DNA of 64,000 nt from Deltaproteobacteria bacterium CSP1-8 (GTDB lineage: Bacteria > Desulfobacterota > Deferrimicrobia > Deferrimicrobiales > Deferrimicrobiaceae): assembly GCA_001443455.1 (NCBI GenBank), contig LDXO01000001.1, positions 3,102 to 67,101 of the forward strand, in the 5' to 3' direction. Under the pieces are notes generated by a model. That model was not told the DNA's origin, searched no databases, and was given only the letters and a program-made list of their open reading frames with translations. Each line of letters begins with the position of its first letter. The first letter of the stretch is position 1. Positions 16,671 to 21,289 of the stretch are shown piece after piece. The position numbers were made by a program, and so were the translations under genes.

Positions 16671-17612
16671 ATGTCCGTGGACGAGAAGAAGAATTCGAAG
16701 AGGGAAACCCTGGAACAGGAGATCGAGGCCGCCGTAGCCGAGGGGACCGCCGACCTCGAGCCCTCCGAGGCGGAGAAGATCCGGGAGAAGGTCCGCGCCC
16801 GCGTCCTCGAGGAAGTGGAACGGGAGAGACGCATCCGCACGGCTGCGGAACGCAGGGCGGAGGAGCGCAGACGCCGCGAGGAGAAGCGGCGGGAGAAGCA
16901 CCCCGAGGAAGGGGAGATGTTCCAGCGGTTCAACCGGAACTTCCGTTTTCAGCACATCGTGATGTTCACCTCGGTCATCCTCCTGATCATCACCGGGATG
17001 CCGATCAAGTTCCCCGACTTCGTCCTGTCCCGGTTCCTGGTGAACCTGTGGGGCGGGTTCCACAACTCCACGATCGTGCACCGGATCGGCGCGGGCATGC
17101 TCATCTACTTCATGGTGCACCACCTCTTCTACACGGTGCTCTCCCGGCAGGGGCGGCGCGATTTCGTGCTCCTGATCCCCACCCCCAAGGACGCGAGGGA
17201 CCTGGTGCAGAACATCCGGCATTTCCTGGGGAAGGTCCCGGAGAAACCGAGGTTCGGCCGGTTCAGCTACATCGAGAAATTCGACTACTGGGCCGTCTAC
17301 TGGGGATGCGTCATCATGATCGGCTCGGGGCTCTTCCTCTGGGGGGAATCGATCGCCCTCAAGTATTTCCCCAAGTACATCCTGGACGTCGCCCACGAGA
17401 TGCACAGCGACGAGGCGATGCTGGCCACGCTGGCCATCGTCATCTGGCACTTCTACAACGTCCACTTCAACCCGGACCGGTTCCCCGGGACGCTGATGTG
17501 GTGGCACGGGGAGATCTCGGAGCATGAGATGAAGGAGGAGCACCCGCTCGAATACGAGGAGATGATGGCGAAGCGTTCCAAGCAGGAGGCGGCGGAGGTG
17601 ACCAACCGATGA
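16671..17612 (+). CDS. FdnI/HydC-like dihaem cytochrome b with an ~85-aa Glu/Arg-rich coiled-coil N-terminal extension
   Basis: 313 aa. N-terminus 'EERRRREEKRREKHPEEGE' is a low-complexity ER-rich stretch. It is followed by 4 TM helices with conserved His and a C-terminal 'EHPLEYEEMM' motif. Confidence 0.75.
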   Translation: MSVDEKKNSKRETLEQEIEAAVAEGTADLEPSEAEKIREKVRARVLEEVERERRIRTAAERRAEERRRREEKRREKHPEEGEMFQRFNRNFRFQHIVMFTSVILLIITGMPIKFPDFVLSRFLVNLWGGFHNSTIVHRIGAGMLIYFMVHHLFYTVLSRQGRRDFVLLIPTPKDARDLVQNIRHFLGKVPEKPRFGRFSYIEKFDYWAVYWGCVIMIGSGLFLWGESIALKYFPKYILDVAHEMHSDEAMLATLAIVIWHFYNVHFNPDRFPGTLMWWHGEISEHEMKEEHPLEYEEMMAKRSKQEAAEVTNR

Positions 17613-19690: not shown

Positions 19691-21289
19691 CTACCGCTTC
19701 CCGCCTTGCCCCGCCTCTCCGTCTTCCGCTTTCCTGCCTCCTTTCCCGGCCCCACTGCCGGAGAACGCCGAAAGAGCCGTTTCGGCGTCCACCCGCGCCT
19801 TTCCGAGCACCTCGGTGGCGTACTCCACGTTGTGAATCCCCTTCCCGTAGAGGATGAAGAGGTAGTTGTACTCGGCGTCCCGTGCCTGCGCAACGGCCTT
19901 CCGGTTCTCCATGCGGGAGGCGTCGGCGGATCGAAGCAGGTCACGGGCCTTCTCCACGACGGGCTTCGTCTTGGCGAGAGCGCTTTTTACCTCCTCCCGC
20001 CAGCTCCCCATCACCCCCTTGTAGTCCTGGCCGTGGCACCCGAGGCAGGCGGCCTCGGAGGCCTGGAACGTCTGGCCGAGGAACGCCACCGTGGATTCCG
20101 CCGTTTTCGGCACGAGGTGACACCCGACGCAGTCCACGTTGGCCACGAACATCGGGCTTGGCCTGTTGGGGACTCCCCGGGCGCCGATCCCCATGTAGAT
20201 CTGCTTCTGGATGTTGTGCTTCTTCTCGTGGCAGACCGTGCAGTCGTATTGCAGGGGCTCGACCGTCGTCTTGACCGCGTGCCGGATCTCCTCGTGGCAG
20301 TGCGTGCACTCGATCTTGTGGTCGGTCACGTGGTTCCTGTGCATGAAGTCGGTGTCGGCGTAGCGAGCGAGCCGGGACGGCTCGTTGTGGCACTGGAGGC
20401 AACGGTCCTTCTTCGCCTCCCCTTCCCCCTGGATCGCCTCGAGATGGCAGTTCTGGCACGCCACGTGGCGCGTTCCCACGAACTCCTTGTGGTTGAAGCT
20501 CGCGTTCCCTACCTTGATGTCCCCTTCCGGGGCGGCGTGGCAGTTTCCGCATCCCCCGATCGGGTTCTCGACGCGCCCGATCTTGGTTCCCTTGAAGTGA
20601 CACAGGAAGCAGGTGCTCTCGGTGACTTCCATGTGGTTCCCCACGACGATCTGGCTGTGACAACTCGTGCACCGGAGCTTCTTCCCTCGCTTGAGGTCCA
20701 CCAGGTGCGGCCGGTGGTCGAACTTGATCCCGCGCTTGAACGTGACCTGTCCCTGGAGGAGCCGGGTTTCGTGGCATCCCATCCGCAGGCAGGAGGCGTC
20801 GTCGATCTCGGCGTACGGCTTGGAGCTGTAGGTGCGGGTAACGTACTTGGCGACCTGCGAGAGCGCCTGGAATTTCAGAATCAGTTTCTCCCGCACCTCC
20901 GGCGGGTAATGACAGTCCACGCACGGCACGTGGTTGTGGCTGGAGGTCTTCCACGCCTGGTAATACGGCTTCATGATGTGGCAGCTGGCGCAAAAGTACG
21001 GGCTGGTCGAGAACTCGAACATCCCCGCGGAGAAGATGAGGAAAAGAACGCCGAGGAATCCGAGGAACTTGAAGAACCGGGGCTTAAGGTGGAGCCTGTC
21101 CTCCTTACCCTCGGGGATGTGCATCCCGAACTTTTCCATGACCCGCTTCTTGCGGGTTTTCTCATGGCTGGCGGGAGCCCCGGACCCTTTCTGCGGTTCG
21201 TCCATGGCCTGTCCCTTCCTTGCCGGGAATCGTTCCTGCAACCAGCATGCAAAGTCGGTATTGTATCCGCGGCACCCCGCGGAGTTCAA
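19691..21289 (-). CDS. NapC/NirT-like membrane-anchored 12-heme cytochrome c (inverted paralog of the N-terminal two-thirds of 17609..19642)
   Basis: Start overlaps the upstream stop as ATGA. TM '[17 protein letters not shown]'. 11 CxxCH motifs plus the variant 'CLRMGCH'. Clear paralogy, e.g. '[30 protein letters not shown]' vs '[30 protein letters not shown]'. Confidence 0.8.
   Translation of the reverse strand: [532 protein letters not shown]

Follow-up and report, generated by a model that had tools for sequence, protein, structure and literature searches.

Predicted membrane-anchored cytochromes c with 18 and 12 haems encoded by a convergent gene pair in Deltaproteobacteria bacterium CSP1-8

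A stretch of 64,000 nucleotides from Deltaproteobacteria bacterium CSP1-8 (contig LDXO01000001.1, positions 3,102 to 67,101; hereafter the window) carries two long genes for multihaem cytochromes c, designated A and B, whose stop codons face each other. Besides regular CXXCH haem motifs both proteins contain a CX4CH motif, and A also contains a CX3CH motif. The locus raises the question of what kind of proteins these are, whether the irregular motifs bind haem and need a maturation apparatus of their own, and whether the facing genes record a local inverted duplication. Comparison with homologues assigned A and B to two ancient sister subfamilies of one uncharacterised family of membrane-anchored multihaem cytochromes c.

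Variant haem motifs in two paralogous cytochromes

The two genes and their variant motifs, each motif checked by translation, are located in the window as follows.

17609..19642, plus strand: gene of protein A, 677 amino acids, 18 haem sites (from the list of open reading frames)
17924..17944, plus strand: CX4CH haem site of A, CLSSGCH, residues 106-112
18992..19009, plus strand: CX3CH haem site of A, CMTLCH, residues 462-467
19691..21205, minus strand: gene of protein B, 504 amino acids from the ATG at 21205, 12 haem sites
20771..20791, minus strand: CX4CH haem site of B, CLRMGCH

Counting by regular expression gave 16 CXXCH motifs in A plus CLSSGCH (residue 106) and CMTLCH (residue 462), a total of 18, and 11 CXXCH motifs plus CLRMGCH in B, a total of 12. 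The open reading frame of B stays open on the minus strand to 21289 and would encode 532 amino acids counted from the first TTG; translation more likely begins at the ATG at 21205, which is preceded by a better ribosome-binding site (AAGGAAGGG) and yields a protein of 504 amino acids. A BLASTP comparison aligned A and B over 456 amino acids with 37% identity (E 1e-94), far beyond chance. This agrees with an earlier interpretation made without database searches (the sequence-only reading), which had described an 18-haem and a 12-haem paralog alike over about 450 amino acids. Residues 466-677 of A duplicate the C-terminal module and share 26% identity with B 297-506 (E 1e-18). The duplicated module spans positions 18986-19642 of the window (residues about 460-677), and it is because of this internal duplication that A has six more haems than B. 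CMTLCH is the first haem of the second tail copy and is homologous to the canonical CLQCH of haem 8 in B.

The 240 relatives that were retrieved split cleanly into halves: 120 were nearer A, with identities of 43% or more to A and some 37% to B, and 120 were nearer B, with 45% or more to B and some 36% to A. A CX4CH motif of the CL..GCH type was present in 113 of the 120 A-type relatives, the misses coinciding with truncated sequence entries, and in every one of the 120 B-type relatives; CX3CH was found in 117/120 A-type sequences. The B-type relatives come in 12-, 15- and 18-haem forms, and almost all of the 18-haem forms carry C[AG]xLCH. An exhaustive search of 1.84 billion cluster representatives (clusters at 50% identity) yielded a family of 377 clusters at E<=1e-30, and at least 384 stretches matched in a genome set with a single representative of each species. 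From the best 150 of the cluster search, 144 representatives were newly retrieved as a distant sample; CX4CH was conserved in 121 of them with the consensus C[LM][RQ]xGCH, and most of the other 23 had one additional CXXCH in its place. In the alignment the CX4CH column is occupied by CXXCH in P0244, P0277, P0356, P0363, P0366, P0373 and others (for example, ..DENCLA--CHTTRLL; P and L numbers denote relatives and related loci). The CX3CH column toggles likewise, with CLS-CH or CRT-CH in place of CMTLCH.

Since one homologous position alternates between canonical and extended spacing, it is almost certainly a normal covalent haem site, and both CX4CH and CX3CH are almost certainly genuine family-wide haem sites. 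They would be ordinary sites, the third motif of the chain and the first of the extra module, with an insertion of two residues or one residue between the cysteines. The sequence-only reading had taken CX4CH for a real, conserved attachment site and had proposed an alignment of the paralogs and their homologues as a check; this alignment supports it, the CX4CH region being conserved in both subfamilies and in the distant sample.

A and B are each nearer to orthologues in other phyla (43–53% identity) than to their neighbour (about 36–37%). Some distant genomes contain members of both subfamilies, as does CP070770 (A-type P0093, and locus L043), and this, together with the clean split of the relatives, indicates that the duplication is ancient.

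Domain architecture and related cytochromes

Each of the two proteins is predicted to comprise a single membrane helix, a head resembling NrfH, a c3/c7-like middle part and a tail resembling OcwA/NrfA, which is doubled in A. Hydropathy analysis identified a single hydrophobic segment ahead of haem 1 in each (residues 15-44 of A, 42-67 of B), and the AlphaFold model of B placed a membrane helix at 42-66. The haem 1 motif is CVVCHYM in A and CASCHIM in B, that is, the NrfH-type CXXCHxM, which was found in 125 of the 144 distant representatives. Residues 50-115 of B, comprising haems 1-2, aligned with residues 21-84 of NrfH from D. vulgaris (2j7a), CXXCHxM and Lys82 included, and the alignment improved to E 3e-12 with a profile of 43 family sequences. 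Among these 43 sequences M78 and K111 of B were invariant, K111 being the residue aligned with Lys82. B passed the cut-off of the NapC/NirT N-terminal family in Pfam (PF03264; 42.9 bits against 24.1) and matched the NCBIfam model of NrfH (TIGR03153) over positions 10-136 of 138; A also matched this model over its whole length. The NapC/NirT/NrfH-like N-terminus recognised in the sequence-only reading is therefore upheld, by PF03264 for B and for both proteins by an NrfH model that is matched in full length at scores below its curated cut-off.

NrfH, NapC, NirT and CymA (2j7a) resemble A and B in the single N-terminal helix, the CXXCHxM haem 1 immediately after it and the equivalent of Lys82. 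However, NrfH and NapC have four canonical CXXCH haems in about 140–200 amino acids, whereas A and B have 18 and 12 sites in 677 and 504 amino acids, a third site of the CX4CH type and a chain that continues into further haem domains. A and B also scored below the NCBI cut-offs (for NapC/NirT TIGR02161, 21 bits against 310.6) and have no adjacent gene for NrfA, NapAB or another reductase partner. On haem number and curated scores both are placed outside the NrfH/NapC equivalogs, and they are likewise placed outside MtrA/DmsE.

[quoted passage not shown] ImcH of Geobacter sulfurreducens is alike in concept, an NrfH-like quinol site being combined with extra haems leading to periplasmic partners, but it has three helices, seven haems (6–10 in homologues) and a His/Gln haem 1. 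By the published descriptions A and B are set apart from it by their single helix, 12 or 18 haems, CXXCHxM motif and OcwA-like tail.

The middle stretch of A and B was matched by the Pfam c3/c7 families. Class III cytochromes c3 (for example, 2bq4) have CX4CH and, within the group, CX3CH as regular sites, and it is the middle of A and B that the Pfam c3 family matches; they are, however, small soluble tetrahaem proteins, and the CX4CH of A and B sits in the NrfH-like part and not in the c3-like stretch.

The structure 6i5b, matched by the tail, is that of OcwA, a nine-haem surface reductase of Thermincola (T. potens) (PMC9250108). Residues 253-467 of B matched residues 266-488 of OcwA with E 1e-12 (5.3e-21 with the family profile), and NrfA chains matched positions 355-476 of the profile, comprising the last two haems and the helices, with E 3e-4 to 2e-3. 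In the AlphaFold model the tail of B forms three long helices (398-424, 432-454 and 460-482; predicted local distance difference test score, pLDDT, above 85), and all of the top 17 Foldseek matches were NrfA, ONR or MccA. The last five haems and the three C-terminal helices of A and B are homologous to those of OcwA and NrfA, with fold matches to ONR and MccA as well, and the tail is assigned to the OcwA/NrfA superfamily. Differences from the OcwA and NrfA/ONR/MccA group are that A and B have no c554-like N-terminal module and no CXXCK, the His380/His381 pair of OcwA is His-Asn in their family, and the module is fused behind an NrfH-like anchor and present twice in A.

B-type sequences have 10 invariant His residues outside the motifs and one invariant Met, in a P-S-x-M motif common with OcwA, for 12 haems; A-type sequences have 15 conserved non-motif His and 2 Met for 18 haems. 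Several 12-haem relatives of B (P0178, P0188, P0193, P0198, P0201, P0214 and P0221) have a response-regulator receiver domain at the N-terminus, placed in the cytoplasm before the anchor, hinting at a redox-sensing or regulated variant of the family. In others (P0293, P0312, P0334 and P0372, of 1321–1441 amino acids, and P0340, P0343, P0351 and P0355) 5 to about 25 predicted membrane helices precede the NrfH-like head; this polytopic part had no Pfam match. Fusions of either sort in front of the anchor settle the topology, which is that of a cytoplasmic-membrane protein with its haems outside.

Gene neighbourhood, predicted role and haem attachment

A and B are each the last gene of an operon of quinone-reactive b-cytochrome modules, the other members of which are listed below.

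11505..13601, plus strand: 11-haem c-type cytochrome fused to a C-terminal dihaem b-type cytochrome, CbcL layout; first gene of the plus operon
13598..14854, plus strand: 11-haem cytochrome c with signal peptide and C-terminal membrane helix, CbcA-like
14860..15555, plus strand: membrane cytochrome b of the FdnI/hydrogenase type, CbcB-like (PF01292, E 1.4e-13)
15552..16616, plus strand: 9-haem cytochrome c with C-terminal membrane helix, CbcA-like
16671..17612, plus strand: second FdnI-type membrane cytochrome b (PF01292, E 2.5e-15); its stop overlaps the start of A
21286..22560, minus strand: 9-haem cytochrome c with signal peptide and C-terminal membrane helix, upstream of B
22596..23030, minus strand: C-terminal part of cytochrome b, subunit IV-like (PetD-like; PF00032, E 1.1e-14)
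23040..23798, minus strand: cytochrome b6-type subunit (PF00033, E 2e-51); first gene of the minus operon in the window

The CbcL-like fusion was identified by matches to Pfam c3/c7/Paired_CXXCH, by PF01292 (Ni_hydr_CYTB) at residues 469-646, by 11 CXXCH motifs and by several hydrophobic helices. The product of 14860..15555 reached 59 bits with TIGR01583, under the curated cut-off, and that of 23040..23798 was ExtP-like at 238 bits, below the 290-bit cut-off. The plus operon is made up of the CbcL-like fusion and two CbcA/CbcB-like pairs, in which the second gene encodes a four-helix FdnI-type cytochrome b, followed by A; the minus operon has the order cytochrome b6, subunit IV, 9-haem cytochrome and B. 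Together they encode about 70 c-type haem sites.

These arrangements recur across phyla, as Rieske-cytochrome b6-subunit IV-multihaem cytochrome-B-type and as a variable number of [multihaem cytochrome + cytochrome b] pairs followed by an A-type gene, in Deferrimicrobia, NC10, Nitrospinota, Nitrospirae, Gemmatimonadota, Elusimicrobia, Acidobacteriota, Planctomycetota and others. Among 85 related loci, FdnI-type cytochrome b was found in 48, cytochrome b6 in 33 and a Rieske protein in 29, with many contigs ending early; in L038 and L043 a single strand carries every module of the two window operons. Locus L025 has two consecutive Rieske-b6-subunit IV-multihaem cytochrome sets before a single B-type gene. 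CbcBA and CbcL of Geobacter, which are b-plus-c quinone oxidoreductases (bioRxiv 10.1101/2021.04.15.440034), have the same layouts as the window neighbours, a multihaem cytochrome c with a C-terminal helix standing beside, or being fused to, a four-helix dihaem cytochrome b, and in Rieske/cytochrome b clusters (ExtP/ExtQ-like) cytochrome b6 and subunit IV sit with a multihaem cytochrome, as in the window. The difference from the Cbc and Ext systems is that here three b/c modules stand in a row, always ending in an A-type 18-haem protein, and that the ExtP/ExtQ scores lie below the cut-offs. Elsewhere in the window, an IS1595-family transposase gene (DDE_Tnp_IS1595 with a zinc ribbon) is located at 41382-42323, between 2-oxoacid dehydrogenase genes and an NDH-2-like gene.

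Based on this architecture and context, A and B are probably inner-membrane electron-output wires in a metal-respiring chain of the Deferrimicrobiaceae (MBNT15); their closest homologues are from Ca. Deferrimicrobiaceae. Electrons would leave the menaquinol pool at the NrfH-like haem-1 site or via the partner b-cytochrome modules, and the 12 or 18 haems of the chain would conduct them into the periplasm and on towards soluble or outer carriers, in the service of extracellular, probably Fe(III), respiration. A cluster of the same type, 'cluster 1' of Ca. Deferrimicrobium borealis, has been linked to Fe(III) reduction (PMC9386147).

A number of observations weigh against this assignment. A fell below the reporting level of PF03264, and both proteins scored below the curated cut-off of TIGR03153 (B 61.7 and A 33.7 bits against 134.2). 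The register of the head also differs between methods: the TIGR03153 match (B 79-214) takes in the CX4CH haem, as if it corresponded to haem 3 of NrfH, whereas the profile search against the Protein Data Bank weakly aligned NrfH haems 3-4 with family haems 5-6. The E-values of the Foldseek matches were weak (0.03–0.4), and the middle of the AlphaFold model of B was poor (mean pLDDT 66); poor AlphaFold confidence in a haem-rich region is usual when the haems are not modelled. It is odd that a quinol-dehydrogenase-like protein should close an operon that already contains quinone-reactive b-cytochromes, and the NrfH-like head may do no more than anchor the protein and let electrons in. For the whole family, the direction of electron flow, the partners and the substrate are all inferred. 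Finally, a Rieske gene heads the minus set in L001, L004, L007, L008 and about 25 other loci but is absent upstream of the window cytochrome b6, where neither tblastn nor alignment of the DNA to L001, L007 and L008 revealed it. The DNA can be matched to L007 and L008 only as far as 23818, which lies 20 bp upstream of the cytochrome b start. The interval 23799-24301 is a local rearrangement or deletion; some 480 bp of it are unrelated sequence without a convincing gene, and a peptidase M1 gene comes next. The bc-type module may lack a Rieske subunit or use one encoded elsewhere, and the minus operon may be incomplete or differently wired.

The tail gives some weight to an enzymatic function, in which an open-coordination haem would reduce nitrite, hydroxylamine, sulfite or chelated Fe(III) and A and B would be single-chain quinol:substrate reductases resembling NrfH plus NrfA. 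It is homologous to OcwA (E 5e-21 with the profile) and NrfA, its best Foldseek matches are NrfA, ONR and MccA, and the His aligned with OcwA H380, next to the open haem, is invariant (H330 of B); OcwA and its relatives, which have five-coordinate haems, reduce nitrite or NO in vitro (PMC9250108). However, neither A nor B has a CXXCK motif, the position aligned with the distal, non-bonding His381 of OcwA is Asn, and the neighbourhood consists of electron-transfer modules only. Moreover, the conserved His and Met residues, together with the NrfH-type Met at haem 1, suffice for a sixth ligand on every haem beyond haem 1, which favours a wire over an enzyme. We consider an enzymatic role unlikely.

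There is also a wider proposal, of low probability, in which both subfamilies, the Rieske/b6 module and the repeated multihaem-c/dihaem-b modules would form one conserved, undescribed respiratory assembly in more than 10 mostly uncultured phyla, including NC10/Methylomirabilis. The NrfH-like heads and the b-cytochromes would provide each complex with at least two quinone-reactive sites, and an energy-conserving or reversible quinone loop could feed a 12–18-haem periplasmic conduit with an OcwA/NrfA-type tail, resembling NrfH and NrfA joined in one chain. Should the tail hold a reactive haem after all, the family would constitute a novel class of quinol:substrate or quinol:metal oxidoreductases.

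The haems of A and B would be attached by the general cytochrome c maturation system of the cell. The sequence-only reading had suggested that variant motifs call for dedicated maturation components, which on the evidence below did not hold; a need of CX4CH and CX3CH for a dedicated lyase (CcsBA/ResBC or a Ccm paralog), as for CX15CH in MccA and CXXCK in NrfA, appears very unlikely. Spacings of three and four residues are known bacterial variants, the classical ones of class III cytochromes, listed in PMC5526843 with Herbaud 2000 and Aragao 2003; according to its title as cited there, Herbaud 2000 describes tetrahaem cytochrome c3 made by E. coli using no ccm genes but its own. CymA homologues, which belong to the same NapC/NirT family, have also been reported to contain a CX3CH (PMC6295460). 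A dedicated lyase does exist for CX15CH, to judge from the citation of Hartshorne 2007 in PMC5526843. The need for a dedicated lyase at CX3CH and CX4CH can hardly be squared with the alternation, in one alignment column, between CXXCH and these longer forms from member to member. Allen et al. are said to have shown in 2009 that Ccm accepts both CX3CH and CX4CH.

Annotation with Pfam (about 40 genes) and a scan for the WWD motif detected no ccm or ccs gene in the 64-kb window, and none was found in the Deferrimicrobia loci. Against the general system stands the finding of genes for WWD-motif haem-handling proteins within 10 kb of a family gene in 10 of the 85 related loci, where by our estimate roughly 0.4–1 would be expected by chance over 1.24 Mb; in Syntrophaceae (L040, L041 and L069) ResB-like and CcsA-like genes directly follow the 18-haem gene on its 3' side. 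The adjacent ccs genes of Elusimicrobia, judged from open reading frame sizes and N-terminal sequences, appear to lie next to a HemA-like gene, which would place them in the general biogenesis cluster.

As a separate observation, genes for WGxxWxWD ResB/CcsB-like and CcsA-like proteins were recorded in L040 (12194-14439) and also in L041, L069, L070, L078, L079, L035 and L063, that is, in Syntrophaceae, Elusimicrobia and a few others, directly downstream of the family gene or within a few kb. CcmF-sized WWD proteins are encoded in two loci, L074 and L075.

A location of A in the outer membrane or at the cell surface, as an MtrA-like terminal Fe(III) reductase, would follow the proposal made for the largest cytochrome of the borealis 'cluster 1'. 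That protein, in which 16 CxxCH motifs were counted, has 24% identity to MtrA and hematite-binding S/T-P-S/T motifs, and an outer-membrane location was proposed for it (PMC9386147). A and B gave weak matches to the DmsE/MtrA model TIGR03508 and to PF22113, but the TIGR03508 scores (40.3 bits for A, 25.5 for B) are far from the cut-off of 192.2, and the N-terminus is a single helix followed by an NrfH-type CXXCHxM haem and the conserved Lys. Relatives in which the anchor follows a cytoplasmic receiver domain or a long series of membrane helices fit the cytoplasmic membrane only, no porin-like gene was found among the annotated neighbours in the window, and the published count of 16 missed two variant sites. 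In our view an MtrA-like reductase is highly improbable, and the inner-membrane wire is preferred.

The convergent junction and implications for the family

The space between the two genes contains the following features.

19643..19690, no strand: spacer between the convergent stop codons, 48 bp
19655-19668: perfect 14-bp palindrome AACCCCCGGGGGTT, inside the spacer

The spacing of the facing stop codons and the palindrome between them are as first described from the sequence, and the junction recurs in at least 12 other assemblies (L001, L004, L006-L008, L010, L012-L014, L016, L018 and L020) of independent origin (JGI, NCBI, ENA and Logan), with spacers of 10–968 bp. Although homologous genes here converge on a short spacer with a perfect palindrome, the notion that the pair arose through misassembly, or recently by an inverted duplication with the palindrome as its hinge, can practically be dismissed, both variants being excluded by these independent assemblies, by the divergence of the copies (37% identity in amino acids; DNA complementarity of only 71–74%, and that on the best 81–150 nt) and by the closer orthologues in other phyla. 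The NC10/Methylomirabilis loci (L029, L032, L034, L050 and L061) have an A-type and a B-type gene one after the other on a single strand, preceded by the same [multihaem cytochrome + cytochrome b] pairs. Of the 'inverted paralog pair' originally described, the paralogy stands, while a local inverted duplication does not, given the age of the subfamilies and their tandem order in NC10. The convergent layout is best described as one form among several that a gene neighbourhood conserved across phyla can take.

The palindrome, real as it is, is nothing unusual. The window contains six perfect 14-bp palindromes, against 7.4 +/- 2.4 in composition-matched shuffles, a pattern scan called no terminator-like site in the spacer, and the folding energy of the spacer compared with shuffles gave z-scores of -0.05 on the plus strand and -1.73 on the minus strand, no gain on the former and a mild one on the latter. 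The orthologous spacers in L001, L006 and L012 carry stronger hairpins based on CCCCGGGG, and several others, of 10–24 bp, have no hairpin. An intrinsic bidirectional terminator was rejected on the pattern scan, the folding z-scores, the chance-level count and the lack of conservation, and the palindrome is regarded as incidental, at most a weak hairpin or the remnant of one. An Rfam scan of the window gave no matches. In L016 the spacer of 210 bp (11383-11594) is filled with repeated units of the GGGACGTTCTTGA type that fold into a long hairpin, and looks like the insertion of a small repeat element.

The variant motifs, the lyase idea and the palindrome are ordinary in themselves; the family and its synteny are moderately interesting. 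In the literature searched, the only earlier account bearing on the family or its link to Rieske/cytochrome b was the general description of a metagenome-assembled genome (PMC9386147), and as far as could be found the fusion of an NrfH-type head to an OcwA-type tail, the tail duplication and the fixed partnership with Rieske/b and Cbc-like modules are undescribed as such. A practical consequence is that counting CXXCH alone underestimates the haems of this family, as with the 16 published for the largest cytochrome of a closely similar cluster against 18 in A. The NrfH-type anchor argues for a place of the 18-haem protein in the inner membrane, as opposed to the published outer-membrane proposal, which would alter the model of electron transfer in MBNT15/Deferrimicrobia. 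As a sizeable uncharacterised family with a tight link across phyla to Rieske/b and CbcAB/CbcL-like modules, these cytochromes are candidates for a core part in the extracellular or periplasmic electron transfer of uncultured bacteria, nitrite-dependent methanotrophs among them.

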